Positions 3,190 to 56,653 of a DNA stretch of 64,000 bases are shown one piece after another. The DNA lies in contig CAZEBU010000001.1 in the NCBI GenBank assembly GCA_964510435.1, forward strand, positions 52,627 through 116,626, given 5' to 3'. The stretch is from an uncultured Candidatus Saccharibacteria bacterium. GTDB taxonomy: Bacteria > Patescibacteriota > WWE3 > UBA101185 > UBA10185. Every line of letters begins with the position of its first letter. Positions within the stretch are counted from its first letter, which is position 1. Position numbers and translations under genes: made by a program. The notes under the pieces are model-generated. The model worked only from the letters and a program-made list of their open reading frames with translations, was not told the DNA's origin and searched no databases.

Positions 3190-6065
3190 TAGATAAACCT
3201 CTCTGCATAAATTCTATCCTTAGAACACCCCGCGGCCAACAACAAGTCAGTCGCATCGGATATCATGGCACGATGTCCGCAGAGGTAAGCCGAGACTTTG
3301 CTCGCATCCTTATAATCCTCTTTGACATATTTGGTAATAAATCCCGTACACCCCTGCCATTCTTCTCCCGGTTCACAAACCACTATCCTGTAATCAAAGT
3401 TGGGGTATTTTTCTTTTAATTCCTTAAAATGATCCTCCCAAAATACCTCTTCCTGATAAGTTAGTCCAAAATAAAGTTTAACAGGTTTCTTTACACCGTA
3501 TTCCTGCAAAGCAGTGTCCATCATACATCTCACGGCACTCATACCGGAACCTGTGGCTAGCAGTAATATTTCCTCGCCCCCATCATCCTTGTTAAAGGTA
3601 AAGACTCCAAATGGTCCTAGAAAGGGTACCGTATCACCCGGTTTTAGGTTTTCAAAAAATTTAGAGCCCGGACCTCCCGGCCTAGTATCCACTAAAAGAT
3701 AAAACTTATTTGGCCCATCGTGTGTGGCAATAGAATAAGCTCTAATAGCATCGGGGGCTACCTTAACACTAATATATTGTCCCGGTTCGAAATTAAATGG
3801 CTCTTGGGTTTCCAGTTCGTAGTAATGATACTGACTTGCCAGCACTTGGTGATCTTTACAGGTGGCAACTTTCATCTGAGGGGGTACGGCTTTTACTGTT
3901 GCTTCCACCTCTTTCATGACTACTTTACCGTCTACCGCCCAGGCTTCGTCCATGGTGACAATGACGGGGTTGATCTCTATTTCCTCCGCTTCCGGGACCA
4001 TGGTTTCCAGCTTGCTTACTCGCACAATAAGATCGTATAGTTTTTCCATAGCATACTCCGGCTGGCTGTCATGCCCTTGTAATATTCCGTAGATCCTTGA
4101 TTTTTCCACCAGTTTCTTGGCTTGTGCTAAGTTAATAGGTAAAAGATGTAGATTTCTATCCGCGATCAATTCCGCGTAGGATCCTCCCGCGCCAAAAAGC
4201 ATCACAGCGCCAAAAGTGGGGTCGTGCTTAAAACCGACTATTACCTCGATCCCGTGTGGTATGTCTTTCTGGATCTGAAAAGACATATGGTCCTTGACGC
4301 CATCATGCAGCTGCTCCACTTTTCTTTCCATCTTATGCCAAGCATCATCAAGTTGTTCCTCATTAATAATCTCCGTAATTACCCCGCCTATATCTTTTTT
4401 ATGCAAGAGACCGGGTGAAGATAACTTGAGAACCACCGGCCATCCGTACTCCAGAGCAAATTCTTTAGCTTCCTCCAAATTACTCACTAGCCTTGTAGGT
4501 GGTGTCTTGATACCAACTGAAGATAAGATCTTATCTGCAGCTAGATTATCCAAAGTTTTGTGTTTTTCATTGATCGCCCTCTGAATAATTTGCCTAATAT
4601 CATCACCGCCTGTTTCCAGCTTGATCGACTCCTCAGGAGATGTGTCCTCCGGCGGTTCTTGCTGGACTTTTTTAAATTGCCACATCTTGCCTACAGCCCA
4701 GATAGCTCTTTCGGGAAACCTAAAAGAGGGTATTTTATAGGCGTTTAATTTATTTTCTCCTTCCGAAACTAGCTTTCCTCCCATAAAAGAACAAAAAATG
4801 GGTTTACCGTATTTCTTGGAAAGATTACCAATAACTTCTGCCGTTTTTTCGATCTGCGTCATTATCTGAGGTGTCAGAATAACTACTAGAGCATCCGCCT
4901 GATCGTTTTTTAGTATTATCTCCAGGGAATCGGCAAACCTATCAGCCAAAGCATCTCCTAAGATATCTACAGGATTCACAATACTGGCAGATCGCGGCAG
5001 AGCCTCCTTAAGCTTTCCTTTAGTTTCCTCATCAAACTCTGTCAGCTCCAACCCCTCTTCCACCACGGCATCGGCACTTATTACAGCCGGGCCTCCTGCG
5101 TTAGAGACAACTGCTACTTTAGGACCTTGAGGAAGATCCTCCCAAGCAAAAGCCCGCGCCAGATCAAAAAAATCTTCCAAAGTTTTACATCTAATAACAC
5201 CTGCTTGCTCTAAAACAGCTTCCATCACCGAATCCTCACCGGCAATGGCTCCTGTATGAGATTGCATTGCTTTAGCGGCCGCTTTAGTTTTTCCGGGCTT
5301 TATGATAAAAACAGGATCTTTCTTGGTAATTTTTCTGACTATCTCTAAAAATTCTCCGCCCCGAGAAATTGACTCCAAATAAAGTCCGATGGGATTTAAG
5401 TCGGATAGCCCTTCTCCGTTATGAGAAATCAGAGTGTTCTGTGATTGTTCGTAAAAATAATTTAATATGTGGTTTTCATTTAAACCTGCTTTATTTCCCA
5501 AGGTCACAAATTCGCTTATACCCACACCGTTAGAATTACACCAATCAAAAAGACTGGCAGCTATGGCACCTGATTGGGTGATAAATCTTAAATTACCTAC
5601 TTCTTTGACCGGCTCCCCAAAAGTCACATTAATCGGCGATAAATTATTTACAAAACCAAGACAATTGGGGCCCAAAAGGTTAATTTGGTATTTTTTCACT
5701 ATTTCCACCAAATCTTCCTCGAGTTCCTCCCCTTCTTGGCCGATTTCTTTAAATCCTGCCGATAAAACAACCACATTTCTTACACCTTTTTCACCTACCT
5801 CGTTAACCACCTGTAATACAGAGGATGCCGGGATAGCAATAACCACCAACTCGGGTACTTCGGACAAAGCGCTCACGTTTGGAAAAGTCTCTAATTCATT
5901 TATCTTTTCCGCATTTGGATTGATAGGATAAACTTTACCTTTATAACCCGAATTGATAATGTTTTTAAGGATGATTGCTCCTAACTTTTCAGGATTTCTG
6001 GAAGCCCCAACAACTGCTACTGAGGCAGGATAAAATAGCGATGTTACCTCTGTGGGCATATACAT
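3189..6065 (-). CDS. ADP-forming acetyl-CoA synthetase (NDP-forming acyl-CoA synthetase, alpha+beta fused) with a C-terminal ferredoxin-NADP reductase-like FAD/NAD(P)-binding domain
   Basis: The N-terminus has the CoA-binding motif SVAVVGASRNPEKLGAIILKN, followed by a succinyl-CoA-synthetase-like ligase domain and an ATP-grasp domain. The last ~245 aa carry the FNR signatures RAYSIAT (the RxYS FAD motif), ATGSGMSAV and YLCGHRAM. Confidence 0.75.
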   Translation of the reverse strand: MYMPTEVTSLFYPASVAVVGASRNPEKLGAIILKNIINSGYKGKVYPINPNAEKINELETFPNVSALSEVPELVVIAIPASSVLQVVNEVGEKGVRNVVVLSAGFKEIGQEGEELEEDLVEIVKKYQINLLGPNCLGFVNNLSPINVTFGEPVKEVGNLRFITQSGAIAASLFDWCNSNGVGISEFVTLGNKAGLNENHILNYFYEQSQNTLISHNGEGLSDLNPIGLYLESISRGGEFLEIVRKITKKDPVFIIKPGKTKAAAKAMQSHTGAIAGEDSVMEAVLEQAGVIRCKTLEDFFDLARAFAWEDLPQGPKVAVVSNAGGPAVISADAVVEEGLELTEFDEETKGKLKEALPRSASIVNPVDILGDALADRFADSLEIILKNDQADALVVILTPQIMTQIEKTAEVIGNLSKKYGKPIFCSFMGGKLVSEGENKLNAYKIPSFRFPERAIWAVGKMWQFKKVQQEPPEDTSPEESIKLETGGDDIRQIIQRAINEKHKTLDNLAADKILSSVGIKTPPTRLVSNLEEAKEFALEYGWPVVLKLSSPGLLHKKDIGGVITEIINEEQLDDAWHKMERKVEQLHDGVKDHMSFQIQKDIPHGIEVIVGFKHDPTFGAVMLFGAGGSYAELIADRNLHLLPINLAQAKKLVEKSRIYGILQGHDSQPEYAMEKLYDLIVRVSKLETMVPEAEEIEINPVIVTMDEAWAVDGKVVMKEVEATVKAVPPQMKVATCKDHQVLASQYHYYELETQEPFNFEPGQYISVKVAPDAIRAYSIATHDGPNKFYLLVDTRPGGPGSKFFENLKPGDTVPFLGPFGVFTFNKDDGGEEILLLATGSGMSAVRCMMDTALQEYGVKKPVKLYFGLTYQEEVFWEDHFKELKEKYPNFDYRIVVCEPGEEWQGCTGFITKYVKEDYKDASKVSAYLCGHRAMISDATDLLLAAGCSKDRIYAERFI

Positions 6066-23989: not shown

Positions 23990-24625
23990 GTGAAGGTTGT
24001 TAAAGGCAACAAAGAATTCGACATATCAGAGGAGCAGTATAAAAAGCTAATCAACAACTATAAAAATATTATTCTCGATATAGGAACGGGGGACGGAAGG
24101 TTCATCTATAAAAATGCTTTAGAAAATATAGAAGAATTTTATATCGGATTAGATCCTAGTGCAAAACAACTGAAAAACTACTCCAAGAAAGCAGTAAGAA
24201 AAAAATTGCCTAACGCTTTATTCGTCATAGGTTCCTCCCATAACATTCCAAAAGAGTTAGAAAACACTATAAATACCCTCTACGTAATTCTGCCCTGGGG
24301 AACCTTATTACAAAACCTGGTATTACCATCACGAGAATTCATAAACAGCTTAAGTAAATTATTAATAGCAAATGGGAAAACAATGTTTATCTTAAGTTAT
24401 TCCCTGGAATTTGAACCGTCAGAGACTAATAGGTTAAGTTTACCGGAACTTTCAGAAGAACATTTAAAAACACATCTAATGAGTACCATGGAGAAAGAGA
24501 GGTTTAAAAACATAAAAATTATCGGCATGGAAAAGGGTAGCTTAAAATCTTTAGAGAGTACTTGGGGCAAAAAGCTCGCTTACGGTAATATTCGAAAAAT
24601 ATTCAAAATTACCGCAGAAAGGTAG
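23990..24625 (+). CDS. class I SAM-dependent methyltransferase
   Basis: Motif I ILDIGTGDGRF. Confidence 0.5.
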   Translation: MKVVKGNKEFDISEEQYKKLINNYKNIILDIGTGDGRFIYKNALENIEEFYIGLDPSAKQLKNYSKKAVRKKLPNALFVIGSSHNIPKELENTINTLYVILPWGTLLQNLVLPSREFINSLSKLLIANGKTMFILSYSLEFEPSETNRLSLPELSEEHLKTHLMSTMEKERFKNIKIIGMEKGSLKSLESTWGKKLAYGNIRKIFKITAER

Positions 24626-26915: not shown

Positions 26916-26980
26916 TCGGGGTGTTTAACTCGCTTCGCTCGTTAGCGATCGTCGCTGACGCTCCGATCTAGTGCACAGTA
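26916..26980 (+). promoter_or_regulatory. conserved ~65-nt 5' leader/upstream element of tRNA-Pro; a paralogous copy lies at 50105-50170
   Basis: About 88% identity between the two copies, which is higher than between the two tRNAs themselves. Both copies begin with TCGGGGTGT, the same bases that start the tRNA. Confidence 0.5.
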
Positions 26981-27000
26981 CATATCTTTATATTATCGTC

Positions 27001-27077
27001 GGGGTGTGGCGCAGTTGGCTAGCGCGCACGCATGGGGTGCGTGAGGTCGCGGGTTCGAGTCCCGCCACCCCGACCAT
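27001..27077 (+). tRNA. tRNA-Pro (anticodon GGG), CCA encoded
   Basis: Hand-folded cloverleaf: acceptor CGGGGTG/CACCCCG; D-stem GCGC/GCGC; anticodon stem CACGC/GCGTG with loop AUGGGGU; T-arm GCGGG-TTCGAGT-CCCGC. Confidence 0.85.
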
Positions 27078-27200
27078 TTAAAAAACCAGTCCTCAAATAC
27101 TTTATTATTCGGTGTTATACCAACTAATACTCCTGGTTCGATAGTTTCCAGTTTTGCATTAACCATTTCGCTATTTCCTTTAAATGCTATGAACGGTTTT
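27078..27200. repeat. conserved tRNA-Pro 3' flank (pseudo-ORF remnant on the minus strand); a paralogous copy lies at 50265-50390
   Basis: The minus-strand translations are ...NAKLETIEPGVLVGITPNNKVFEDW and ...NAKLKSVKPFELVTIGKNIGAFKY. Neither copy has an intact ORF. Confidence 0.45.
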
Positions 27201-27374
27201 TGCAGGTCAATATCAAGTATTCCGCCTTTTATAGTAAAGTTCGAGCCTAAACTTCTTAATATCAACGTTTTATCCTCGGCTGTTACTAGTTAATATATAG
27301 CACCTATAGTAATTATTGACATCGTAAGCTGCTTAGGTTATCATTCAGACATAGACAGAGAGCGTGGGTTCGCC

Positions 27375-28184
27375 CTAGTTGGCGCTTGTACCCAAAGCAC
27401 TGTCTATTTTCTTTTCTATATTTCCTTTAAACTCTGTAATTTCAAAACTACGTCCATAACCCAACCTATAGCTACCAGTTTCTGCCATTTGCTTAACGCC
27501 CAGCTTTTTCTGAACGTGAGCCATCAACCTATATTTTGCACTTTTCCTACCACCCCTGATAGAAATTAGCCCATATTTCAGTTTAAAGGCGTAGGCAACA
27601 CATCCAATAAGCACATCGACCAATTGAATTTCGCTCACAGCGTGTGATTCGACACGACAAATACCGTATAATGCGTTTCTTCTTGTACTCGCTCTTATTT
27701 TTCGCTTAGTATCTTTTTCGAACGTGTCTGCTTTTGGAGTACTTACATCATCAGCCAACACAACCATATATTCTCCAGCACCTAGGGAACTGGCAATCAA
27801 CTTACCAGCAAACGCGTTATAGGCTTTGTTGTGGTTGCTTTTGAAATATTTTTTTATGTCTAAACCCTGCTTATCGAAAAAAAGGCTATTGAATTTAAGG
27901 TGTGGAGTACTGAAAAATATATCTACCAAACCTTTGTAAAGCGTTAAATTGTCGTCACGGACATTACTAAATTTAAATTCTCCACGAAAATCAGTTTTAT
28001 CCTTGTAACTAACTATTTTCTTATGAAGAGCGGAAGGTTTATGTACATACAATAGTCCCAAACCGAATACCCTATCTTCTTTTGGGGAATGAAGAAGACC
28101 AACTTCATCTAAAAACCCAAAATAGTTGATTTTTTGCTTTGGTCCAGGTTTTGCTGCCATAGTAGGTTCTACTTCGTTTCGCAA
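27375..28184 (-). CDS. DUF3800-family protein
   Basis: The N-terminus has YFGFLDEVG (cf. the DESG motif) and the C-terminus has SEIQLVDVLIGCVAYAF (cf. QLADLIAYA). Confidence 0.45.
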   Translation of the reverse strand: MRNEVEPTMAAKPGPKQKINYFGFLDEVGLLHSPKEDRVFGLGLLYVHKPSALHKKIVSYKDKTDFRGEFKFSNVRDDNLTLYKGLVDIFFSTPHLKFNSLFFDKQGLDIKKYFKSNHNKAYNAFAGKLIASSLGAGEYMVVLADDVSTPKADTFEKDTKRKIRASTRRNALYGICRVESHAVSEIQLVDVLIGCVAYAFKLKYGLISIRGGRKSAKYRLMAHVQKKLGVKQMAETGSYRLGYGRSFEITEFKGNIEKKIDSALGTSAN

Positions 28185-28273
28185 TTATTACAACACAATT
28201 GTACGCAATAATTGTATGTTAATCAAGTGCATCTATTGTTATTTATCAATTTGTAAGGCGAACACACAAAAGA

Positions 28274-28305
28274 GTTACAAACATAGTCTAATATGGTAGA
28301 CCAGG
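28274..28305 (+). repeat. junction repeat, copy 1 (divergent)
   Basis: GTTACAAACATAGTCTAATATGGTAGACCAGG. Confidence 0.4.
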
Positions 28306-28354
28306 CTTTTTGACTGCTCTTACAACAAATTTTATCATCGTGTATAATGAGTCC

Positions 28355-28789
28355 ATGAACGAAATTGGTACTCAAATTAGAGGAGACCACAAAAACCCTT
28401 ATCACCTTTCGGTTGGAGCAGTTGTTACCAACAACAACCTGGTTGTTCTTATAAAAAAAGGTGGCAACTTTTATACATTGCCAAGAGAAACTATTTATTC
28501 CCTGGAAAACGTACACGGGGCTGTGCAAAGAGGTCTGGAAGAAGAAGTGGGGATTAACTCCGAGGTTGTAAAGTTTTTAGGTTCAGTAATTGAACATTTT
28601 AATCGTCCAGACGGTACAAAAGTAGAAAAAACAACTTTATACTTCTTGTGTGAAAAAGCTTCTGATTATAAAGAAGACGAGACGGACGAGGAGGTTATTT
28701 GGGTTGAGAACCAAAAAGCCCTAGAGTTGCTTAAAAAGTGTGGTAATGAGGAATACAATATAGTAGACAGAGCTTTCAATAAGACCTGA
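28355..28789 (+). CDS. NUDIX hydrolase
   Basis: Nudix box GAVQRGLEEEVGI. The start is ATG 28355; the track uses an upstream TTG. Confidence 0.6.
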   Translation: MNEIGTQIRGDHKNPYHLSVGAVVTNNNLVVLIKKGGNFYTLPRETIYSLENVHGAVQRGLEEEVGINSEVVKFLGSVIEHFNRPDGTKVEKTTLYFLCEKASDYKEDETDEEVIWVENQKALELLKKCGNEEYNIVDRAFNKT

Positions 28790-28817
28790 CTGCTACGTTC
28801 CCCGAACTTATCAAAAA

Positions 28818-28847
28818 GTTGCAAACGTCGTTCACTATGGTCGACCA
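28818..28847 (+). repeat. junction repeat, copy 2
   Basis: GTTGCAAACGTCGTTCACTATGGTCGACCA, 29 nt after the NUDIX stop. Confidence 0.6.
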
Positions 28848-28852
28848 GTGGA

Positions 28853-28895
28853 AAAGCGGGTGTTGCCCAAAGGGTAATAGCCGCTTTTTCATTTG
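28853..28895 (+). terminator. rho-independent terminator-like hairpin
   Basis: AAAGCGG-loop-CCGCTTT followed by TTTTCATTTGTT. Confidence 0.5.
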
Positions 28896-28898
28896 TTA

Positions 28899-29001
28899 TG
28901 GCGGGACGAGAATGATTCGCAGCGAGCGGAGGCGAGCGAGAGGGGGTCGACTGGCTCGCCAGCAGGCGAGAACAGGTGACCGAGTCCCGCCACCCCGACC
29001 A
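28899..29001 (+). repeat. tRNA-Pro 3'-half-like element: GGCGGG...(~70-nt insert)...GAGTCCCGCCACCCCGACCA
   Basis: The last 21 nt (28981-29001) are identical to the 3' end of tRNA-Pro(GGG) (T-loop/stem, acceptor and CCA). The 5' GCGGG can pair with CCCGC like a T-stem, with a large insert in place of the T-loop. Confidence 0.55.
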
Positions 29002-29119: not shown

Positions 29120-29968
29120 CTAATCTATGGAACATACCTGTTCTGCTTCAGTTACAAGTTCCATTACCCTTTTAGAATCAAATGATTTATCTAGCAATAC
29201 CCTCCGGCTTTTTTCTTCTCTAAGATCCCTACATAAAACGATGCCACAGTCTAACAAATCCTTTTTCTCTTGTTGTGTAATACTCTTTAAACACGTTATT
29301 GGATGTAAACCGGAATCATCTATAAGTTTTTGTAACGATGCATCATTTGGATACCCCCAGCCCAACATCTTAACACCGGCACATTCCCCAAATTTTATAG
29401 CATCAGATGTAAACTTAGTGTTTGTGACAACCCATCCTTGATGGAATTTATTCATGTGACCTTCTTTTTTTTCCCACACATCAGCTACGTCCTCGAACCT
29501 AGATTTTATATACATTGGAACCTTTACATCTGTTTTATAACCCTGCCTATTATGATATTTACACTCAATCATAAAATGCTCATTATCCTTCAATGCGACA
29601 ACGTCAACCTCGTGACTAACACACTTCCCTTGCACAATTGCCCCCACCTCCACCTTGTACCCATAATTCTCCAAAATCCTACCGATATATCTTTCAAACG
29701 GGAAACCTGTTGGTCCTAATTGCATAATTGCCTTTTTCAGATTATATCTGGATGTTGTATGAGGTTCATGTTTGTTAAGAAAATCTACTATGATCTCGTG
29801 AATTTCTTTGGTTGATATGTTGTTGTAAAGCTTCGCAAGCACAAATTCTCGGGCCCTCTCCTCAAGACCTCTATTTATCCCAGCATTTCTTATGGACCTA
29901 ATTAGCTTTTCGGCCGAAAAAAGTTGCTGAGAAGAATCATACTTCGTTACATAAATTTTTTCAGTCAT
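29120..29968 (-). CDS. ATP-cone domain fused to an Mrr-like (PD-(D/E)xK) restriction endonuclease domain
   Basis: The N-terminus KIYVTKYDSSQQLFSAEKLIRSI is an ATP-cone. The centre FERYIGRIL...HEVDVVAL...MIECKYH is the Mrr catalytic core. Confidence 0.55.
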   Translation of the reverse strand: MTEKIYVTKYDSSQQLFSAEKLIRSIRNAGINRGLEERAREFVLAKLYNNISTKEIHEIIVDFLNKHEPHTTSRYNLKKAIMQLGPTGFPFERYIGRILENYGYKVEVGAIVQGKCVSHEVDVVALKDNEHFMIECKYHNRQGYKTDVKVPMYIKSRFEDVADVWEKKEGHMNKFHQGWVVTNTKFTSDAIKFGECAGVKMLGWGYPNDASLQKLIDDSGLHPITCLKSITQQEKKDLLDCGIVLCRDLREEKSRRVLLDKSFDSKRVMELVTEAEQVCSID

Positions 29969-32231
29969 TTGAAACTTTAATTAGATTTTTCTCAACTCGT
30001 TTTAGTAGAACGGCATTTGTAGCAACTATTATTGAAGATGCTGACATTAATAATGCCGATATTTCAGGGCGTAACGTAATCCCATAAGCCGGGTATAGAA
30101 TTCCTGCTGCAATAGGTATAGCAAGAACGTTATATACACTTGCCCAAACCAAATTCTGTTTCATTTTTGTGACAGTTGCCTTAGATAACTTAATAGCATT
30201 CAATACATCAAGAGGGTCTGATTTCATTAAGACGATATCTGCGGTCTCAATGGCCACATCAGTTCCAGCGCCAATTGCAATTCCAACGTCTGCCTGGGCT
30301 AGCGCTGGAGCATCATTAACTCCATCACCAACCATTGCGGTAAATTTTCCTTCCGATTGAAGTTGCTTTATATGGTTAGCCTTATCTTCAGGAAGAACTT
30401 CTGCAAAAAACCTTTTGATATTAAGGTCCTTTGCAATATGCTCTGCAGTTTTAAAATTATCTCCCGTAATCATCACAGCTTCTATCCCAAGCTTGTTTAA
30501 CATGGAAATTGTCATTTTAGCACTTTCTTTAACAGGGTCCATAGCAGCAACTACGCCTGCTATTTTTTTATTTATTGCTAACAACATAATTGTTTTACCC
30601 TGTTCCAAAAGATTATTTAGAGGAACCTCAATTTCTTTAAGCTCAACGTTGTTATTTCTCATTAGTTTTGCTGTACCTACTAAGACTTCTTTACCAGCAA
30701 CAGTAGCTACTACGCCATGCCCGGACAAACTCTTAAACTTTGTCACATCATTTGATATCCTGCTCTGTAAATTCCTTCTTTCAACTTCTTCTAAAACTGC
30801 TGTGCTTAGTGGGTGACCTGATTTTTTTTCAGCGGCGGCGTCCAAAAGTAATATTTCTTCTTCAGAAAAATCGTTAACGGCTATTACGTCAGTGATTTTA
30901 GGTTTACCTTGAGTTAACGTTCCAGTTTTGTCCAGTACAATAGCCTGAATCTTAGAGGCCTGCTCCAAAGTTACTGCATCTTTGATTAAAATGTTGTTCT
31001 TAGCTCCAAGACCTGTTCCGACCGCTACTACTGTTGGTGTCGCTAAACCTAGAGCATCTGGACAGGCAATAATAATAGCTGAAATAGCGAATGTTAAAGC
31101 GAAGAGTAGGGGTTGTCCCACGAAAATATACCAAATCGAAAATGTTATAATTCCACTTCCCACGGCTAGTATTACTAAGTAAGCTGCGGCTTTGTCTGCA
31201 ATTCTTTGCCCAGGTGCTTTTGAGTTCTGAGCGGTTTCGACTAACTTCACTATCTGAGCCAGGGCAGTGTCTCCACCAACCTTCATAGCTCTAAACTTTA
31301 TAGACCCGGCTTGGTTTATAGATCCACCTATTACCTTGTCACCTAATTGCTTACTAACGGGAAGTGATTCCCCTGTCACCAAAGATTCATCAATTGAAGT
31401 CTCTCCCTCTATAATCTCCCCATCTACTGGAATCTTGTCTCCCGGTTTTATAAGTACAATGTCCCCTAATATAATTTCGGCGGTATCTATAAGCATTTCC
31501 GAATTGTCTTTAATAACAGTCGCTTTTGGAGGTACCAAATCAAATAAGGCTCTTAATGAGTCGGACGTCCCCCGCCTAGACTTCATTTCCATCCAATGGC
31601 CAAACAAAACAAATGTTACAAGCATTGCAGCAGCTTCATAGAAGGTTTCTTGGCCAAAAAGAGTCAAAGCTATACTAAACAAGTAAGCTGCTAGAACCCC
31701 CGTGGAAATTAACACAGACATATTTAGTTTCTTAGCTTTAAGGGAATTGTAAGCGCCCCTTACAAAAATATTCCCAGTGCCTAAAACTATTGGTGTAGTT
31801 AATAGAAAAAGCAAAACACCTACAGGTATGGGAGACGGTAAAATGAGACCAAACACCTCAGTTGCTAAAGGTGAATATAGGATAACTGGTATAGAGAGAA
31901 TGAAGGAGATAAAAAACCTTCGCTTCATATCCTTTTCCATTTGTTTAGCCATACTGGGATCGGACATAGCAGCCTCGTGGTCCTGATGGCTCATATGCTC
32001 ACTTTTTAGTTTTAGGTCTTCACCATCGGAGTGCTTATACTCATGTCCGTCATATTCATGCTTGCTTTTAAGATTGTACTCATACTGTTTCGCCTCCATA
32101 TCAGATCCGCATGTAACGGTTATTTTTTCTGCTATGCAGCAAAAACAGGAATCTGTGGTTTTTGGATTTTCATGTTCTTTTTTATGGCTCTTCATAATAA
32201 TTATCTCCTCCTTGTACTTATTGTGTACCAA
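29961..32231 (-). CDS. heavy-metal (probably copper) translocating P1B-type ATPase with a His-rich N-terminus
   Basis: DKTGTLT, GDGVNDAP, the TM motif ACPDALGLATP (CPD rather than CPC/CPH), and an N-terminal His-rich stretch. Confidence 0.8.
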   Translation of the reverse strand: MVHNKYKEEIIIMKSHKKEHENPKTTDSCFCCIAEKITVTCGSDMEAKQYEYNLKSKHEYDGHEYKHSDGEDLKLKSEHMSHQDHEAAMSDPSMAKQMEKDMKRRFFISFILSIPVILYSPLATEVFGLILPSPIPVGVLLFLLTTPIVLGTGNIFVRGAYNSLKAKKLNMSVLISTGVLAAYLFSIALTLFGQETFYEAAAMLVTFVLFGHWMEMKSRRGTSDSLRALFDLVPPKATVIKDNSEMLIDTAEIILGDIVLIKPGDKIPVDGEIIEGETSIDESLVTGESLPVSKQLGDKVIGGSINQAGSIKFRAMKVGGDTALAQIVKLVETAQNSKAPGQRIADKAAAYLVILAVGSGIITFSIWYIFVGQPLLFALTFAISAIIIACPDALGLATPTVVAVGTGLGAKNNILIKDAVTLEQASKIQAIVLDKTGTLTQGKPKITDVIAVNDFSEEEILLLDAAAEKKSGHPLSTAVLEEVERRNLQSRISNDVTKFKSLSGHGVVATVAGKEVLVGTAKLMRNNNVELKEIEVPLNNLLEQGKTIMLLAINKKIAGVVAAMDPVKESAKMTISMLNKLGIEAVMITGDNFKTAEHIAKDLNIKRFFAEVLPEDKANHIKQLQSEGKFTAMVGDGVNDAPALAQADVGIAIGAGTDVAIETADIVLMKSDPLDVLNAIKLSKATVTKMKQNLVWASVYNVLAIPIAAGILYPAYGITLRPEISALLMSASSIIVATNAVLLKRVEKNLIKVSND

Positions 32232-32902
32232 TTTAAATGTTCATACAACCCCGACCACAAAAATCCTAGTACAAGGGCGAATAGTAGCTCTTCTAGAGGT
32301 ACTTTGAGTACCATAATCCCCGTCAGTTTTCCTAAATTCCACACCTCCATCGTCCAGTTAGGGAAAAAGAGGTTAAGTGCTACAAAAAAAATAAAATAAA
32401 AAGCAAAGAAAATAATAGAACCTAGAAACATCTTGTACTTGAGATCGGGCCTACAATAGAGTGAAAAAACACCTCCGATGAATAGAGAAGCTATTGTTAC
32501 ATAAATAATATTCCAGCCAGTAAATGTGTAAAGAAGTATAAATGCTAAAGGAGCTGACATGATGATTAGCTTATGGTAACGGTGCCTAAGGTGTTGCTTG
32601 TCTAGCTTGGAAAATTTTAAATATCTGGTCTTTCTAATCACTTCATAAGATACTGTAGCTAGACCGCCAATACTAAATGCGAATATTAGACTTTCTATGT
32701 CAAAGCCAGTTGTTTGAGCCAAATTGAACAAAGATGGCGGCTCCCAATATTCAGGTACAAAAAAAGGCTCTGTCAAACCAAAAAAGGAAGTAAGAACGCT
32801 AACGTATATCATAGCCCTTTTACTATCCTTATTAATCTTCAAGTAAACAAGAACCCAAACGAGCAAAAATATTAAACTACCAATAAGCCAAGTATATTGC
32901 AT
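32201..32902 (-). CDS. lycopene-cyclase-domain (CrtYcd-like) membrane protein
   Basis: Two PxEE motifs, FVPEYW and VPLEELLF, in a 7-TM protein. Confidence 0.45.
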   Translation of the reverse strand: MQYTWLIGSLIFLLVWVLVYLKINKDSKRAMIYVSVLTSFFGLTEPFFVPEYWEPPSLFNLAQTTGFDIESLIFAFSIGGLATVSYEVIRKTRYLKFSKLDKQHLRHRYHKLIIMSAPLAFILLYTFTGWNIIYVTIASLFIGGVFSLYCRPDLKYKMFLGSIIFFAFYFIFFVALNLFFPNWTMEVWNLGKLTGIMVLKVPLEELLFALVLGFLWSGLYEHLNWYTISTRRR

Positions 32903-32906
32903 AATT

Positions 32907-33173
32907 TTATTCTTTTAACTTTAGCAAAGCGTCATCATATTCTCTCTCACCTATTTCCCCCTCCGCAAATCTTCTCTTAAGAATATCAGTAGGATTTTCT
33001 GTATCCGTATCTCTGGATTCTGATTGTTTGCGACCCATCATATAAACGAAATAAACTAGCAGTGCTAAAGCAATTACCCCAAAAAACATCATATACATTA
33101 CTCCGCCAAAACTTGTACTTGGAAGATGGTGAGAGTACAGCTCTGTGTTTGTACTATGCGCTAATTGCTCCAT
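32907..33173 (-). CDS. SHOCT-domain membrane protein
   Basis: C-terminal ILKRRFAEGEIGEREYDDALLKL. Confidence 0.5.
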   Translation of the reverse strand: MEQLAHSTNTELYSHHLPSTSFGGVMYMMFFGVIALALLVYFVYMMGRKQSESRDTDTENPTDILKRRFAEGEIGEREYDDALLKLKE

Positions 33174-33191
33174 GTTCAGTAGTTAAATGGA

Positions 33192-33398
33192 CTAAACTCC
33201 AACATATTTTTGCGGGTCGTCTACAAAATGAATTTTGCAGTGTTCAGAGCAAAAGTGATATTCTTTCCCCTTGTAAATAAAAATAAAATCGGTTTCATTC
33301 GTAAACTCCATACCACAAACTAGATCTAGTAAAACCTTCTCAGCATAAGCAAACTCTTTTGGCCTTTTTAGCTTTTTCATAAAAAAATTACTTCCCAA
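33192..33398 (-). CDS. YHS/TRASH-domain metal-binding protein
   Basis: CGMEF...YHFCSEHC. Confidence 0.55.
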   Translation of the reverse strand: MGSNFFMKKLKRPKEFAYAEKVLLDLVCGMEFTNETDFIFIYKGKEYHFCSEHCKIHFVDDPQKYVGV

Positions 33399-33510
33399 CT
33401 AAAGCCACTTTAATTTTAGACAATAATGAAAAATTACCATTGGCTTCCGCCTTACCGCGTTTGACCTTAACTTTCTTTTTCTTTTTATTACCTCCGCAGC
33501 ATCCTGACAT
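33388..33510 (-). CDS. small Cys-rich basic peptide (MSGCCGGNKKKKKVKVKRGKAEANGNFSLLSKIKVALVGK), not in the ORF track
   Basis: 40 codons inside the copper cluster with an N-terminal CC motif. Its last codons share a few bases with the start of the YHS gene (33398). Confidence 0.2.
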   Translation of the reverse strand: MSGCCGGNKKKKKVKVKRGKAEANGNFSLLSKIKVALVGK

Positions 33511-33763
33511 ATTAATACTCCTTTAAAATTAAATTATTAATTACCTTTTTCATTTTCTATTAGTGTTCGCACCCAACTATACGTAAAACCTGTTATCCAG
33601 GCAGAAAGCGCTAAAGACACGCCTCCAAATAGTAATCCCGAAAAGGTCATATTCCATAACCCCAGTACATCAATGTTAAGACCGTGTAACCACTAACGGG
33701 TGATTTGCTAGTGTGTATTTATTTTTCATAATAATCAATATCTCCAATAACAAAACGTTAAAT

Positions 33764-34180
33764 TTATACTTTTTGATTGAGTTTTGCGATTGCTTTCTCC
33801 AAAGCAGCACTGAGCTTAGTTTCTATAACTCCTGCTATTTCCTTAATTTGTTCATTATCGCTAAACCCCAGCACACTTGTTGGTTTCATAAAACCAACTT
33901 TGACCTCTCCAGAATCCTCAAAAACAACTACGTTGCATGGAAGTAGGGCGCCTATTTCGGGTTCTGAAAGTAGTGCTCTATGTGCAAACTTTGGATTACA
34001 TGCACCAAGAATTATGTATTTTGAGTAATCTATATTGAGCTTATTCTTTATAATTTCCTGCACATTTATTTCTGTGATAATACCAAAATCTTCATTTTTT
34101 AGACTCTCTCTTATTGCCTTTTCCGTCTCTTCAAAACCGGAACCAGAAATTTGTATAACTGTATATGCTGCTTTTGTCAT
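33764..34180 (-). CDS. DUF302-domain protein
   Basis: The ILGACNPKFA...LPCNVVV pattern. Confidence 0.55.
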   Translation of the reverse strand: MTKAAYTVIQISGSGFEETEKAIRESLKNEDFGIITEINVQEIIKNKLNIDYSKYIILGACNPKFAHRALLSEPEIGALLPCNVVVFEDSGEVKVGFMKPTSVLGFSDNEQIKEIAGVIETKLSAALEKAIAKLNQKV

Positions 34181-34181
34181 C

Positions 34182-34454
34182 TTACGAACTCCTTTGCCTT
34201 TTTTTATAAATTTCTATTAATTCTTTTATAGCCTTATCTTTTTGGTTACTAAACTGCTCTGAAACATGAATTTGTAGATGCCTTTCAAGAACCACAACGT
34301 CGACGCTCTTAAGAGAGTTCTGAATTGCATAACTAAGATCCAATACATCAATACAATAAGCCTCCTCGTTGATCATTTTGGCAAGGCCATCCAATTGACC
34401 CTTAATTATATTGATTCTCCTTTCAATATCTTTTTTATTATATTCATCTTCCAT
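34182..34454 (-). CDS. csoR: CsoR/RcnR-family metal-sensing transcriptional repressor
   Basis: RINIIKGQLDGLAKMINEEAYCIDVLDLSYAIQNSLKSV...H, a 90-aa DUF156 fold. Confidence 0.7.
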   Translation of the reverse strand: MEDEYNKKDIERRINIIKGQLDGLAKMINEEAYCIDVLDLSYAIQNSLKSVDVVVLERHLQIHVSEQFSNQKDKAIKELIEIYKKRQRSS

Positions 34455-34546: not shown

Positions 34547-34574
34547 GTTGTCCGTGACCGCCATGCTCGACCAG
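34547..34574 (+). repeat. junction repeat, copy 3 (divergent 5' half)
   Basis: GTTGTCCGTGACCGCCATGCTCGACCAG. It is followed by a hairpin with a T-run at 34577-34616 and by GGCAGGACGAGAA at 34622-34634. Confidence 0.45.
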
Positions 34575-34812
34575 AAAAAGCTAGATATCACCGCAGGTGG
34601 TAGCTAGCTTTTTTTAGTTGTGGCAGGACGAGAATAATTCGGACTGAACGAATGAAATGAGTGAAGGAGAGGGGCTAATGCTTTCGTAATAGACGCAGAA
34701 AATAATTTCCTAATAATTCAAAAGAATATTTATGATGATGGTCAATTGGACTATGCAAACAAAGCCATTAAAGATTTTGAATCTCAAGGGCTCCTAAACT
34801 AAGTTCATAAAA

Positions 34813-35543: not shown

Positions 35544-35618
35544 TATGACCAGACTATACTATACAGTATAGAACTTGTCAATTACGTACTGATTAGGTAG
35601 GCTCGCACTCATCAAATG

Positions 35619-35648
35619 GTTGCAAACGTCGGTTACTATGCTCGACCA
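35619..35648 (+). repeat. junction repeat, copy 4
   Basis: GTTGCAAACGTCGGTTACTATGCTCGACCA. Confidence 0.55.
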
Positions 35649-35695
35649 GAAATCCCTATTGACGTCGAACAAACTCATATATACAATGTATACAC

Positions 35696-35962: not shown

Positions 35963-36248
35963 TAAAAACATGTATAAACCACTTGACGAATACGAAAAAG
36001 ATCTACAGGAAACCATTGATAAGGTGGATTCTTTTAAAAGACCTAAAAACTATAAGAAGGTTTTAGCGAAAGCATTAATAGCTGCAAACAACACCTCTTC
36101 AAAATCCAAGACTCTTAATATCCGTATTGCTGAAAAGGACTTAATTATGCTTAAAACTAAAGCTGAAAAGGTTGGTATGCCTTATCATACGCTTATTAAT
36201 ACTGTTTTACACCAGTATGCTAAGGGAGAATTAAAGGTCGATATTTAA
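35952..36248 (+). CDS. brnA: BrnA antitoxin (RHH)
   Basis: KTLNIRIAEKDLIMLKTKAEKVGMPYHTLINTVLHQYAKGELKV. It overlaps brnT by 11 nt. Confidence 0.6.
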   Translation: MKNNKNMYKPLDEYEKDLQETIDKVDSFKRPKNYKKVLAKALIAANNTSSKSKTLNIRIAEKDLIMLKTKAEKVGMPYHTLINTVLHQYAKGELKVDI

Positions 36249-36253
36249 AAAAA

Positions 36254-36283
36254 GTTCAAAACATCGTTCCTTATAGTCGACCA
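36254..36283 (+). repeat. junction repeat, copy 5
   Basis: GTTCAAAACATCGTTCCTTATAGTCGACCA, starting 6 nt after the brnA stop. Confidence 0.6.
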
Positions 36284-36394
36284 TGAAATTATGTAATCAC
36301 ATTTATGTGGTTAATTAACAAACTTTATAGCGGGTGATGGGTTTAGAAACCGTACTAGGCTCAAAGGGGGCATCCTGAGCGGAAATGCTGAAGA

Positions 36395-37092: not shown

Positions 37093-37180
37093 ATAGGCAT
37101 TATACTAGATTGAAAGTTGCAAACATAATAGTCCGCTATAGACAACACAAAATTATACCTGAAGGGCATGACACGAAGTA

Positions 37181-37210
37181 GTGGCAAACGTCGTTTACTA
37201 TGGTCGACCA
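37181..37210 (+). repeat. junction repeat, copy 6
   Basis: GTGGCAAACGTCGTTTACTATGGTCGACCA. Confidence 0.55.
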
Positions 37211-37233
37211 TGGAAGTTTGTTAATATTAGGAT

Positions 37234-39418: not shown

Positions 39419-39453
39419 GGCTACATACTAACAGTCCTTGTATCAACAGAAAA

Positions 39454-39492
39454 GTTCAAAACATCGTTCCGTCGAGTCGGCCACCCCGACCA
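39454..39492 (+). repeat. junction repeat copy 8 fused to a tRNA-Pro 3'-end-like sequence
   Basis: GTTCAAAACATCGTTCC followed by GTCGAGTCGGCCACCCCGACCA. The final 20 nt differ by 1-2 nt from the 3' ends of both tRNA-Pro genes. Confidence 0.55.
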
Positions 39493-39507: not shown

Positions 39508-39840
39508 ATGATAATTACCCTCGACAGAAAAATAACACCCGAGGAGTTTGAGAAAGCAAGGGAAGTTTACAATGACTATATAAAAACCGTCATCGATGTG
39601 GAAAGAAATATACTAGTAGTCGGCGGCGAGTACCATATAGATTGTGAAGAAGTTTTGCTTAAAACGGGAAGTAAACTTGAAAACCTTTACGGTGGGGGTT
39701 ATAAGGTCAGCACAAAGGAGGTTGAGTATATGGCAATGAGTAATTACAAACCTGCTTTAGGAAAAACAACCTATGAAATAATGGACAAAGAAATTCGTGA
39801 CAAATTATATAAGTTAACAAAGAAGTACTTGGAAATATGA
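39508..39840 (+). CDS. hypothetical protein
   Basis: ORF in a cassette. Confidence 0.3.
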   Translation: MIITLDRKITPEEFEKAREVYNDYIKTVIDVERNILVVGGEYHIDCEEVLLKTGSKLENLYGGGYKVSTKEVEYMAMSNYKPALGKTTYEIMDKEIRDKLYKLTKKYLEI

Positions 39841-40115
39841 ACAGAGATAAACAATTCATTATAAACTCAATAAAGATGGATCTTCATAGGGTCGTAACAG
39901 CCGCGGGTGATATAACAAAAAAAGCGCCCACAGAATCGATAAGAACATTCATGGAACATGCAGATAAAGACTTTGATAAAACCGAATTAGATGAAAGGGA
40001 AAAAAGTATCAGACAGGAACTAAAAGCGCTTGCAAATAATCTGGAGGCCTTGTCAGATCCACACACCAGGCTGAGATGGACCGAGGATGTCATGACTGCC
40101 CGGTGCAGGTTGTGA
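39837..40115 (+). CDS. hypothetical protein
   Basis: ORF with a 4-nt overlap with the upstream gene. Confidence 0.3.
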   Translation: MNRDKQFIINSIKMDLHRVVTAAGDITKKAPTESIRTFMEHADKDFDKTELDEREKSIRQELKALANNLEALSDPHTRLRWTEDVMTARCRL

Positions 40116-50009: not shown

Positions 50010-50090
50010 ACTTCGTAATATATCTGACTTCGTTTGATGTATTACTTCGTAATATATCTGACTTCGTTTGATGTATTACTTCGTAATATA
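50010..50090. repeat. tandem direct repeat, 2.4 x 34 bp (ACTTCGTAATATATCTGACTTCGTTTGATGTATT)
   Basis: Units at 50010-50043 and 50044-50077, partial at 50078-50090. Each unit holds two ACTTCGT half-repeats and TTGATG/TAATAT promoter-like hexamers. Confidence 0.8.
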
Positions 50091-50104: not shown

Positions 50105-50170
50105 TCGGGGTGTATAACTCGCTTCGCTCGTTAGCGATCGTAGCTAACGCTCCGATATCTAATGCTCAGT
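50105..50170 (+). promoter_or_regulatory. conserved tRNA-Pro 5' leader (copy 2)
   Basis: See 26916-26980. Confidence 0.5.
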
Positions 50171-50188: not shown

Positions 50189-50264
50189 CGGGGTGTAGCT
50201 CAGTTGGAAGAGTGCACGATTCGGGTTCGTGAGGCCGTCGGTTCGAGTCCGACCACCCCGACCA
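50189..50264 (+). tRNA. tRNA-Pro (anticodon CGG), CCA encoded
   Basis: Acceptor CGGGGTG/CACCCCG; anticodon stem CACGA/TCGTG with loop UUCGGGU; T-arm GTCGG-TTCGAGT-CCGAC. Confidence 0.85.
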
Positions 50265-50531
50265 AACTTGAAAAATCAGTATTTGAAAGCCCCAATATTT
50301 TTTCCAATAGTAACTAATTCGAACGGTTTAACACTTTTCAATTTTGCATTTACCAGTAAGTTATTTTTCTTAAGCAGTACAAAAGACTAGTATAGAGAGG
50401 TATCAAATCTTCCACTTCTTATATGAAGATTCCTATTTTCACTTTTAACTTGTTCAAAAAAAATACATTCAGAAATTATGTGCGTGCTAAAATAGTTTTG
50501 CTAAGAATCATATTGAGTATTAGCTACAAAG

Positions 50532-53599: not shown

Positions 53600-53701
53600 G
53601 AGTTGTAAAACTATAGAAAAGTGCTGAAAATTCAGTGTATAGCATGCCTTAAGCAGATAGAGCAAAAACCCTAAAACGTATGGTTCAGCAAGCACTATGA
53701 A

Positions 53702-53733
53702 GTTTAAAACATCGTTCTGTATAGTCGACTATA
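53702..53733 (+). repeat. junction repeat, copy 10
   Basis: GTTTAAAACATCGTTCTGTATAGTCGACTATA, with a perfect palindrome TATAGTCGACTATA. Confidence 0.55.
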
Positions 53734-54303
53734 CTAGAAACTTAACCAACTGAGAATTAAGCTCAGTAAGGTCTGTTGCACATCCACTACCATTCCGCTC
53801 TCATCCAGTAGAAGCTTCTTTTCAATCTTTACCGGTATTATAAAGAATAGCTTCTCATCTTCAAATACAATAACAACGTCATCGCCCACGGGAATAAATT
53901 CACTAACATCAATATCCTCAATGTTAACTCCGGATCTTACCGATTTTTCATCAACAGATACTTCTGACACAACGGAGGGTGTGCTGACTTCGTCTATAGA
54001 AGGTGTACTAACCTCATCCACAGAGGGGGTGCTGACTTCATCCACCGATGGTGTGCTGACTTCATCGATAGAGGGTGTACTAACCTCATCGACGGATGGA
54101 GTACTTACCTCATCGTCGCCATTGGAAGCCTCAGAGGATCCGCTGCTCTCATCAGCGTATGTGGTAGATAATGAACCATTGCTCACTAACACACTAACTA
54201 CTATGGCTAAAATTAATATACCTATAAAAGACAGAAGAATTTTTTCTGTTTTAGGCAGTTTTTTCATAGTATTAAATATCCCATATAATGGTTTAAATTT
54301 CAA
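53734..54303 (-). CDS. secreted protein with seven tandem VDEVSTPS(I/V) octapeptide repeats
   Basis: An N-terminal signal anchor, with 24-bp DNA tandem repeats at about 53972-54117. Confidence 0.4.
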   Translation of the reverse strand: MKFKPLYGIFNTMKKLPKTEKILLSFIGILILAIVVSVLVSNGSLSTTYADESSGSSEASNGDDEVSTPSVDEVSTPSIDEVSTPSVDEVSTPSVDEVSTPSIDEVSTPSVVSEVSVDEKSVRSGVNIEDIDVSEFIPVGDDVVIVFEDEKLFFIIPVKIEKKLLLDESGMVVDVQQTLLSLILSWLSF

Positions 54304-55764: not shown

Positions 55765-55798
55765 GCAGCATTATGTTAACATTCGAAGTCGTAACAAA

Positions 55799-55830
55799 GT
55801 TACAAACATCGTCCTGGGTAGTCGACTATA
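55799..55830 (+). repeat. junction repeat, copy 11
   Basis: GTTACAAACATCGTCCTGGGTAGTCGACTATA. Confidence 0.55.
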
Positions 55831-55875
55831 GCTTGGCAGACAGACCCTTGTGGTCTAGCTGGCAAGATATTGTGG

Positions 55876-55937
55876 TGGGAGGACGAGAACTCCATGTGCG
55901 AGCGAAGCGAGCACACTTCGAGTCCGGCCACCCTCCC
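55876..55937 (+). repeat. tRNA-3'-half-like element: GGGAGGACGAGAA...TTCGAGTCCGGCCACCCTCCC
   Basis: The same GGNRGGACGAGAA...GCGAGCG.AGCGAGC layout as at 28899-29001. The 5' GGGAGG pairs with the 3' CCTCCC, and there is a T-loop-like TTCGAGTCC. Confidence 0.45.
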
Positions 55938-55956
55938 TACATTGTACATCTAAAAG

Positions 55957-56584: not shown

Positions 56585-56605
56585 TTTCCCAGATCGTATA
56601 AAAAG

Positions 56606-56634
56606 CTGCAAACGTCGTGTACTATGGTCGACCA
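56606..56634 (+). repeat. junction repeat, copy 12
   Basis: GCTGCAAACGTCGTGTACTATGGTCGACCA, 22 nt after the brnA stop. Confidence 0.6.
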
Positions 56635-56653
56635 AAAACACAATAGAGTCCGG

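Follow-up and report, generated by a model that had tools for sequence, protein, structure and literature searches.

A direct repeat that runs from the T-loop to CCA is, as Williams is said to have described in 2002, usual for the tyrosine integrases that target tRNA genes. Cis-mobilizable elements (CIMEs) are att-flanked inserts that have no integrase; they are decayed integrative conjugative elements of several kilobases. In Escherichia coli, the RtT unit (the 178-bp tyrT repeat) is non-coding, follows a tRNA gene and ends in that tRNA's 3' end including CCA, and Bösl and Kersten reportedly found in 1991 that RtT is a processed RNA. Elements that integrate into tRNA genes leave behind partial copies of the tRNA; as newer ones arrive, the older copies are displaced outward and decay (10.1101/2020.12.28.424599; PMC9897764). 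Here we describe a 64,000-nucleotide stretch, called the window throughout, of contig CAZEBU010000001.1 (positions 52,627 to 116,626, assembly GCA_964510435.1) from an uncultured Candidatus Saccharibacteria bacterium, in which two tRNA-Pro genes are followed by gene cassettes separated by a short repeat, J, and by longer units, E, that join a GC-rich core to a copy of a tRNA 3' end. We lean, with some reserve, towards reading E1, E3, a truncated E2 and a J/tRNA chimera as junction elements of a tRNA-anchored cassette array.

E1 lies behind tRNA-Pro(GGG), and the features on which its description depends are these (positions are those of the window).

27000 to 27076, plus strand: tRNA-Pro(GGG) gene, found by ARAGORN and Rfam; anchor of the first array, with the repeated tail at 27056-27076.
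28848 to 29001, plus strand: E1 unit, 154 nucleotides (nt), GC-rich, beginning just past the ACCA of a junction repeat J and closing with an ACCA of its own.
28899 to 28907, plus strand: 5' strand of the E1 closing helix, TGGCGGGAC, complement of tRNA positions 59-67.
28981 to 29001, plus strand: copy of the tRNA-Pro(GGG) 3' end, from C56 to CCA, exact over 21 nt.

The original prediction, made by a model from the letters of the DNA, had named 28981-29001 as an exact copy of the tRNA 3' end, and this is borne out: the 21-mer CGAGTCCCGCCACCCCGACCA is exact at 27056-27076 and at 28981-29001, identity with the tRNA begins at T-loop C56, and 100 dinucleotide shuffles gave 0 matches. As in an attR site, the repeat is a direct one of the 3' part of the tRNA, in the same orientation and downstream of the gene. 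The segment between (27077-28980) contains only a 63-amino-acid open reading frame (ORF), a DUF3800 gene and a NUDIX gene, and no integrase. E1 itself is 1.9 kb from the tRNA, past opposite-strand genes. It comprises a terminator-like hairpin at 28852-28889, the conserved 5' block TTGTTATGGCGGGACGAGAATG, a core rich in GC (62-65%) and the tRNA tail. In its minimum-free-energy fold (-47.6 kcal/mol, z-score -3.1), TGGCGGGAC (28899-28907) pairs with GTCCCGCCA (28984-28992) in a 9-bp helix around 76 nt, the pairing of the 5' strand being 2 bp longer than the tRNA's own T-stem flank would allow. A T-stem-like pairing of GGCGGG with the tail had been anticipated, and it is present in this helix; only its coordinate was one base low, the hexamer being at 28900-28905.

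Relatives of E1 occur behind tRNA genes of other metagenome loci. In L014, a tRNA-Pro tail closes three elements, of which two are in tandem without a gene between; L014-t1, one of the three, is a clear homologue of E1. E1, E3, L014-t1 and L014-t2 all start right after an ACCA and finish in an ACCA of their own. A covariance model, R1, built from E1, L014-t1 and E3, matched positions 6946-7077 of L033 with 41 bits (E = 6e-8). This element, E-Leu, belongs to a 178-nt unit that begins 49 nt behind tRNA-Leu(TAG), the 49-nt stretch being free of genes, and ends in the exact last 22 nt of that tRNA; its 5' strand GAGAGGGGAT pairs with ATTCCCTCTC in a 10-bp helix. The tRNA-Pro and tRNA-Leu versions have a core in common, AATGCCGnAGCG..GCGAGGCGGGGTCGC..variable hairpin..ACGnGTGAC, to which C56 is joined directly, and their ends match the local tRNA. 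Core and helices are thus conserved across the tRNA-Pro and tRNA-Leu versions, and the ends track the tRNA that is nearby.

For the covariance-aware structure check that had been proposed, we used four members of the E family, aligned by fitting to the model. In these four sequences, 85% of cells pair, compared with 31-44% in slid controls, and none of 500 shuffles reached as high a value; 11 pairs are changed on both sides, five of which are in two internal helices. A structured small RNA with a tRNA-like 3' domain had been offered as one explanation of these elements, and covariation in the internal helices supports the structured part, while the RNA part is a possibility that we take up below. 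The T-stem-like closing helix is present in E1, E-Leu and the 3' module of L014-t2, and is reduced to GGAC:GUCC in L014-t1 and E3. Folds of the family beat shuffled sequence, with z-scores of -2.0 to -3.1. Rfam, searched with gathering and E-value thresholds, yielded the tRNAs and one sub-threshold match to RtT on E1, and the proposed search for a known family ended with no match to these elements above threshold. Judged by sequence and predicted fold, the E units fit no Rfam family and form a new one.

The tRNA-Leu version also allows strains to be compared. E-Leu occurs in five contigs of one WWE3 species and is not found at the tRNA-Leu(TAG) of two other WWE3 species or of L025, and it is therefore an accessory insert and not a housekeeping RNA. 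Contig L174, from one WWE3 strain, is 99.8% identical to L177 and L178, from another, up to the last base of tRNA-Leu and divergent beyond ACCA. Behind the tRNA, L174 has the 49-nt spacer, E-Leu, 16 nt and an SDR gene, whereas L178 has a Phd/ParE cassette, a tail of about 100 nt with a decayed copy of the tRNA tail (GCCACCCAACCGCTGG vs TCCACCCACCAAAGCGG), and the same SDR gene. The slot right after the tRNA ACCA therefore accepts alternative inserts. Each of these inserts is bounded distally by a copy of the tRNA tail, and the E unit is one insert that has no gene.

In the window, the E units are part of a larger series. J is about 46 bp long and is present in at least eight copies over 28259-56635, all on the plus strand, together with partial copies.

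28259 to 28304, plus strand: J, diverged copy, between the DUF3800 and NUDIX cassettes.
28803 to 28848, plus strand: J (...TATGGTCGACCAG), end of the NUDIX cassette, with E1 immediately next.
35604 to 35649, plus strand: J.
36239 to 36284, plus strand: J, after a BrnT/BrnA-like cassette.
37166 to 37211, plus strand: J, with a partial copy at 37113-37129.
53687 to 53732, plus strand: J.
55784 to 55829, plus strand: J, directly before E3.
56590 to 56635, plus strand: J, after the second BrnT/BrnA-like cassette.

The consensus of J in the window is AAAGTTrCAAACrTCGTTCnnTATrGTCGACCA. Its 3' end, ...GTCGACCA, resembles tRNA-Pro, and J ending in ...TATAGTCGACCA looks like a miniature tRNA-Pro tail. 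Between the copies are segments of one or two genes (DUF3800; NUDIX; an Mrr, P-type ATPase and CsoR copper block; PIN-HTH; two BrnT/BrnA-like pairs; HEPN-nucleotidyltransferase; phosphotransferase; DUF5674; UDG). The stretch 28259-56635 is an integron-like cassette array with J in one orientation and no recombinase gene in sight. Each E element of the window comes after J and a hairpin, and each unit begins just past the ACCA of J and closes with an ACCA of its own. The interval between E1 and E2 (29120-34454) is a copper-handling block of an Mrr-like nuclease, a P-type ATPase, a lycopene-cyclase domain, DUF302 and a CsoR-type repressor, and CopA homologues adjoin J in L029 and L032 as well. 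We rejected a role of J as promoter: the NUDIX gene has its sigma-70-like sites on the downstream side of J, and the genes that follow J are on the plus strand in 21 cases and on the minus strand in 12.

The remaining members of the E family and the second anchor are as follows.

34578 to 34680, plus strand: E2, hairpin and E-family 5' block TAGTTGTGGCAGGACGAGAAT, then diverged sequence; truncated or decayed member.
39439 to 39492, plus strand: J/tRNA chimera, 5' half of J and tRNA-Pro tail TCGAGTCGGCCACCCCGACCA, directly before the DUF5674 cassette.
50189 to 50264, plus strand: tRNA-Pro(CGG) gene, found by ARAGORN and Rfam; anchor of the second array, with E3 5.65 kb downstream.
55830 to 55939, plus strand: E3, short E member, with GGACGAGAA block, GCGAGCGAAGCGAGC and decayed tRNA-Pro(CGG)-like tail TTCGAGTCCGGCCACCCTCCCTA; 53.5 bits with model R1.

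All three E units of the window have a 34-nt 5' block in common, and GGACGAGAA occurs on the plus strand at 28904, 34626 and 55881 and once on the minus strand, when about 0.33 matches are expected by chance. Three further elements had been pointed out beforehand, and each was recovered. The truncated one at 34622-34680 is E2, which has the 5' block, lacks a tRNA tail and is directly preceded by a degenerate J (34550-34577). The similarly built one at 55876-55937 is E3, a shorter relative of E1 with the same 5' block; its tail is 76% identical to that of the tRNA, and a BrnT/BrnA-like cassette starts directly after it. The tRNA 3'-end-like copy at 39473-39492 is joined, as had been suggested, to a junction repeat, namely to the 5' half of J; the orthologous DUF5674 cassettes of L025 and L038 have an ordinary J where the window has this chimera.

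A scan of metagenomes for J identified 30 loci, with consensus TAAAATAGTTGCAAACATCGTCTGCTATAGTCGACCA. In 10 of the 30, which represent six independent lineages, a tRNA-Pro gene (GGG, CGG or TGG) lies in the same orientation 1-6 kb upstream of J, and up to five copies of J follow it. The order of cassettes differs between loci: L033 reads tRNA-Pro, A B J, C J, and L014 reads E E, C J, A B J E, the A-B cassettes of the two being 97.7% identical. Blocks of homology between contigs start at most about 5 nt past the end of one J and stop within 1 nt of the end of the next. The DUF5674 cassette of the window (39508-40115) also stands behind an ordinary J in L025 and L038, occurs in L024, and in L186 stands behind a variant repeat, J' (ATAGTTCGCACATCCTGACAGATGGCCCACCA). 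The cassettes are exchangeable units bounded at a repeated site. Real or copied tRNA tails, together with J, mark the exact edges of the exchangeable segments, and between arrays as between strains homology breaks exactly at ACCA; to this extent the earlier suggestion of att sites stands. There is no close relative of the window: its best neighbour protein is 38% identical, exact-protein look-ups returned the strain of the window and no other, and the syntenic loci L012 and L019 have the genes upstream of tRNA-Pro(GGG) in common with it and nothing downstream.

The variant J' is present in L186 at 2383-2415, 3032-3065 and 3713-3745, and also in L180 and L182. Its 3' end is CCCACCA (...GGCCCACCA), and in the genome of another member of the Patescibacteria it stands between Phd/ParE, DUF5674 and other cassettes. 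In L033, at about 137-250 compared with about 874 of L014, there is an insertion of about 115 nt with CTCGCTTCGCTC and a hairpin, possibly with a duplication of AATTAT, within a cassette leader that is otherwise 97.7% identical to that of L014. Neither J nor the E core was found in viral contigs, where all 120 matches to a loose pattern were unrelated, and collections of phages and plasmids gave no match to J plus E1.

The tail-copy units lie between mobile cassettes behind tRNA genes, so they are most likely DNA attachment sites and not broken tRNA genes, and the E units are best read, from their sequence, as attachment sites, or as insertion units that carry no genes, in a system that would target tRNA 3' ends. 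This accords with the documented pattern of partial tRNA copies at tRNA genes described above. In such a system, segments of one to a few accessory genes would be inserted directly past the ...ACCA of a tRNA (that of tRNA-Pro in the window, that of tRNA-Leu in a WWE3 bacterium) and possibly also after the ...ACCA of an earlier junction. The cargo would be of the kind seen in the array (toxin-antitoxin pairs, NUDIX, DUF3800, a copper-resistance operon, a phosphotransferase). Each segment would carry its own 3' junction, either the short 46-bp J or the long E site, in which a conserved, folded core rich in GC meets, at C56, a faithful copy of the last 17-22 nt of the local tRNA; an E unit of about 110-230 nt may also be an insert in its own right, with no gene. 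We infer a site-specific recombinase, encoded elsewhere, that would cross over in or near the T-loop-like GTTCG...CGACCA, and to judge by the chimera at 39439-39492 the crossover point is probably the GTTCG that J and the tRNA have in common. The faithful tail would regenerate or duplicate the tRNA end, and the folded core may bring a strand complementary to tRNA positions 59-67 up to the tail and so form the site that the enzyme reads.

Several observations weigh against this interpretation. The ORFs scanned across the 64-kb window contain no domain of an integrase, resolvase or transposase, and neither do 20 cassette ORFs of related loci; Phage_integrase had no match in those loci or in the surroundings of the two tRNA-Pro genes. 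The window itself provides no empty site and no excised circle, and its nearest syntenic relative differs throughout the downstream region. A unit of 150-230 bp is very small for a double-stranded circular intermediate, and the strand of E that pairs with the T-stem sequence is about 75-100 nt from the crossover point, unlike in a classical double-stranded core site. Covariation of the E family rests on four sequences aligned to a model, and the closing helix must covary with the tRNA anyway. Finally, RtT has the same layout as E and is, as noted above, reportedly a processed RNA.

A bolder version of the cassette-array reading, which we regard as tentative, is that candidate-phyla-radiation bacteria capture cassettes in an integron-like manner, with the 3' end of a tRNA as anchor, J and J' as sites that mimic its tail, a recombinase acting in trans, E as a folded single-strand site and RtT as relics of such insertions. 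The folded E site would then present tRNA positions 59-67 as a double-stranded likeness, with the tail free next to it. Like integrons, the array has promoter-poor cassettes of one or two genes, rich in toxin-antitoxin pairs and each with an end repeat in the same orientation; identical cassettes are present in different orders in different genomes, and a folded-strand site is plausible for E. In contrast to integrons, there is no IntI beside the array and the anchor is a tRNA gene instead of attI. J (TAGTTGCAAACATCGTCTGCTATAGTCGACCA) has no inverted RYYYAAC...GTTRRRY cores and no long hairpin, only 6-bp palindromes; no matching inverse core lies upstream, and the genes that follow J are in both orientations.

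That the E units are genes for structured small RNAs of the RtT type, with the arrays incidental or mere cargo, seems to us unlikely, although RtT itself, which in E. coli is a processed RNA, lends it some weight. Such an RNA might be transcribed behind a tRNA, or start at a cassette promoter, and then be cut back to a tRNA-like ...ACCA, an end that could stabilise it or mimic uncharged tRNA. The RtT model (RF00391) matches 28885-29001 over its full length with 27.9 bits (E = 0.011 in a 2.2-kb scan, or about 0.3 scaled to the whole window), which is below the gathering threshold of 45; it gives no match to E3, L014-t1, L014-t2 or E-Leu at E <= 5-10, and R1 scores a weak 15 bits (E = 0.3) on E. 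coli RtT. In layout the likeness is close. E1, with its 21-nt tail and 9-bp helix, and E-Leu, with a 22-nt tail and 10-bp helix, are built as RtT is, whose 5' strand GGGGAAGGAU forms a helix with tRNA positions 59-68. In all three (E1, E-Leu and E. coli RtT) the complementarity of this strand to the tRNA starts at position 59 and reaches 67 or 68, which is 2-3 nt past the T-stem and farther than the flank of the tRNA itself pairs. A GGAYGAGAA start, GCGAAGC-type motifs, the tail and CCA occur in RtT as in E, and GGAY pairs with tRNA positions 59-62, the Y covarying as C:G in the Pro versions and U:A in Tyr. The unit is of 178 nt in both tyrT and E-Leu and can be tandem, and E units in L014 and L033 are in tandem or near a tRNA. 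Folding better than that of shuffled sequence and covarying internal helices would also suit an RNA. RtT, however, is a family of the enterobacteria, and its match is to tRNA-Tyr. The E core (AATGCCGnAG...GGGGTCGC...GTGAC) can be aligned to it in short motifs only, and E units are within gene-cassette arrays, a setting not described for RtT. Moreover, E1 is 1.9 kb away from the tRNA, beyond opposite-strand genes and directly past a terminator-like hairpin, the units are sporadic among species and strains, and E2 and E3 are decayed. As far as sequence and scores can tell, the likeness between E and RtT is a resemblance in design and not family membership. In the literature on RtT and on candidate-phyla cassettes we found nothing on mechanism.

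It is rather improbable that the elements are ordinary attR scars, left by islands that lost their integrase and eroded, in which case the GC-rich part would be an old P arm and its structure incidental. The direct repeat from T-loop to CCA, the accessory genes between tRNA and repeat, and a series of decay from the exact tail of E1 through the 76% of E3 to the tail-less E2 are what such scars would leave. Yet one and the same core carries the tails of two tRNAs, once 49 nt from the tRNA with no cargo; L014 has a tandem gene-less pair of E units; the internal helices contain compensatory changes; the 5' strand complements the tail past the T-stem; and remnants of an integrase were not found in the scanned ORFs. 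The suggestion that these are degenerate att sites thus needs amending, as they are not simply the decaying attR scars of one island: a conserved, covarying core stands behind another tRNA, an element can follow its tRNA at 49 nt, the interval being free of genes, and no integrase is present. Tycheposon arrays and other tRNA-targeting elements likewise have a direct repeat of the tRNA 3' part, are stacked behind a tRNA and carry accessory and defence genes (10.1101/2020.12.28.424599; PMC9897764). Those elements are kilobases long with an inward-facing integrase, whereas here none was found, units may measure 110-230 nt and lack genes, most junctions are the tRNA-tail mimic J and not a tRNA fragment, and the long form has a conserved folded core. 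CIMEs are similar in being inserts between att-type repeats that have no recombinase of their own and are presumably moved in trans, but they have neither a conserved folded core nor a cassette array.

More doubtful still is the view that the GC-rich core is an element resembling a miniature inverted-repeat transposable element, which hops into T-loops or tRNA-derived sequence so that the tRNA halves are a disrupted target. Short direct repeats do surround the core (CGAG...CGAG in E1, CGA...CGA in E-Leu), the insertion of about 115 nt in L033 relative to L014 contains CTCGCTTCGCTC and may have duplicated AATTAT, and an 8-nt repeat of CGGGGTGT surrounds a segment with the GC motif upstream of both tRNA-Pro genes; in a Puniceicoccaceae contig, a 20-mer lies between CTGATTCG repeats amid tRNA-Ser fragments. 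There are, however, no terminal inverted repeats and no transposase, and the insertion, the upstream element and the E core have only a GC motif of 12-13 nt in common. The right end of the core is always at C56 and its left end at the tail-matched strand, which a recombination site predicts better than random hopping does. Hardly credible, and rejected here, is that the elements are tRNA pseudogenes or halves of split or permuted tRNA genes, since, although fragments of tRNA positions 1-8 and 56-76 lie beside complementary GC-rich motifs (50118, 55900) in superficial resemblance to the split tRNA genes of Nanoarchaeum, neither ARAGORN nor Rfam RF00005 calls them, they have no cloverleaf and lack positions 9-55, intact tRNA-Pro genes are present, and the tRNAs of the window have a C1:G72 pair, which we take to be of bacterial type. 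With a homologue of a related locus named as candidate division WWE3, this pair places the organisms in the Patescibacteria.

Partial tRNA copies are usually read as dead scars, and here they are part of a conserved, folded and tRNA-matched module found behind different tRNAs. They lie at the exact edges of cassettes in bacteria with very small genomes, which are thought to be poor in means of gene exchange. If the sites of the cassette array are active, they would give Patescibacteria a route for moving toxin-antitoxin, defence and resistance genes, and would define a recombination site that mimics a tRNA end. The elements also offer a concrete and testable idea for the origin of RtT in E. 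coli. Were they only scars, they would still be a useful marker of hypervariable regions in metagenome-assembled genomes.

Other features were noted around the two tRNA-Pro genes. An ORF at 26993-27265 (minus strand, start at 27265) runs antisense through tRNA-Pro(GGG), and its first 63 amino acids, which lie directly past the tRNA end, have no Pfam match. A decayed homologue of this stretch follows tRNA-Pro(CGG) at 50265-50440, and a similar stretch follows tRNA-Pro in L010. We considered a split integrase of the SSV type and rejected it: the antisense ORF matches nothing in Pfam and is not continued at the other end. Upstream of the two genes are the following elements.

26916 to 26967, plus strand: element ahead of tRNA-Pro(GGG), in which tRNA positions 1-8 (CGGGGTGT) are repeated and followed by TTAACTCGCTTCGCTCGTTAGCG...
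50105 to 50156, plus strand: the same element upstream of tRNA-Pro(CGG), 94% identical to 26916-26967.

Both stand about 85 nt before their tRNA gene and join its own first 8 nt to TTAACTCGCTTCGCTCGTTAGCGATCG, and they are this much alike though the tRNAs are only about 80% alike. Their GC motif is the reverse complement of that of E3. CTCGCTTCGCTCG upstream of tRNA-Pro(CGG) (50118) and CGAGCGAAGCGAG in E3 (55900) form a perfect 13-nt inverted pair, 5.8 kb apart, that brackets this tRNA and its first cassettes; at the first locus the partner (26929 and 28922-28938) is imperfect. Terminal inverted repeats bounding tRNA-carrying elements would fit locus 2 and do not fit locus 1, so the idea was not adopted. 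The element with the copied first 8 nt is missing before the orthologous tRNA-Pro(GGG) in L012 and L019. A scan of a genome collection with the upstream 20-mer returned one chance match and one region of tRNA-Ser fragments only. The latter is in L005 (PWZW01000017.1), a metagenome-assembled genome of the Puniceicoccaceae and thus of an unrelated phylum, where at about 4200-4595 the 20-mer TCGCTAACGAGCGAAGCGAG, flanked by the direct repeat CTGATTCG, lies amid repeated 5' fragments of tRNA-Ser(CGA), with the same GC motif beside tRNA fragments.

Just upstream of the tRNA-Pro(CGG) leader element, 50010-50077 is a perfect 34-nt tandem duplication (ACTTCGTAATATATCTGACTTCGTTTGATGTATT twice). At least four 24-nt tandem repeats (53972-54114) are inside an ORF on the minus strand (53734-54303) that has no Pfam match. 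Before the first array, 23990-24625 encodes a homologue of the NpmA-type 16S rRNA (A1408) methyltransferase (Pfam E = 5e-48), an enzyme of the aminoglycoside-resistance type, here in a genome of uncultured Patescibacteria.

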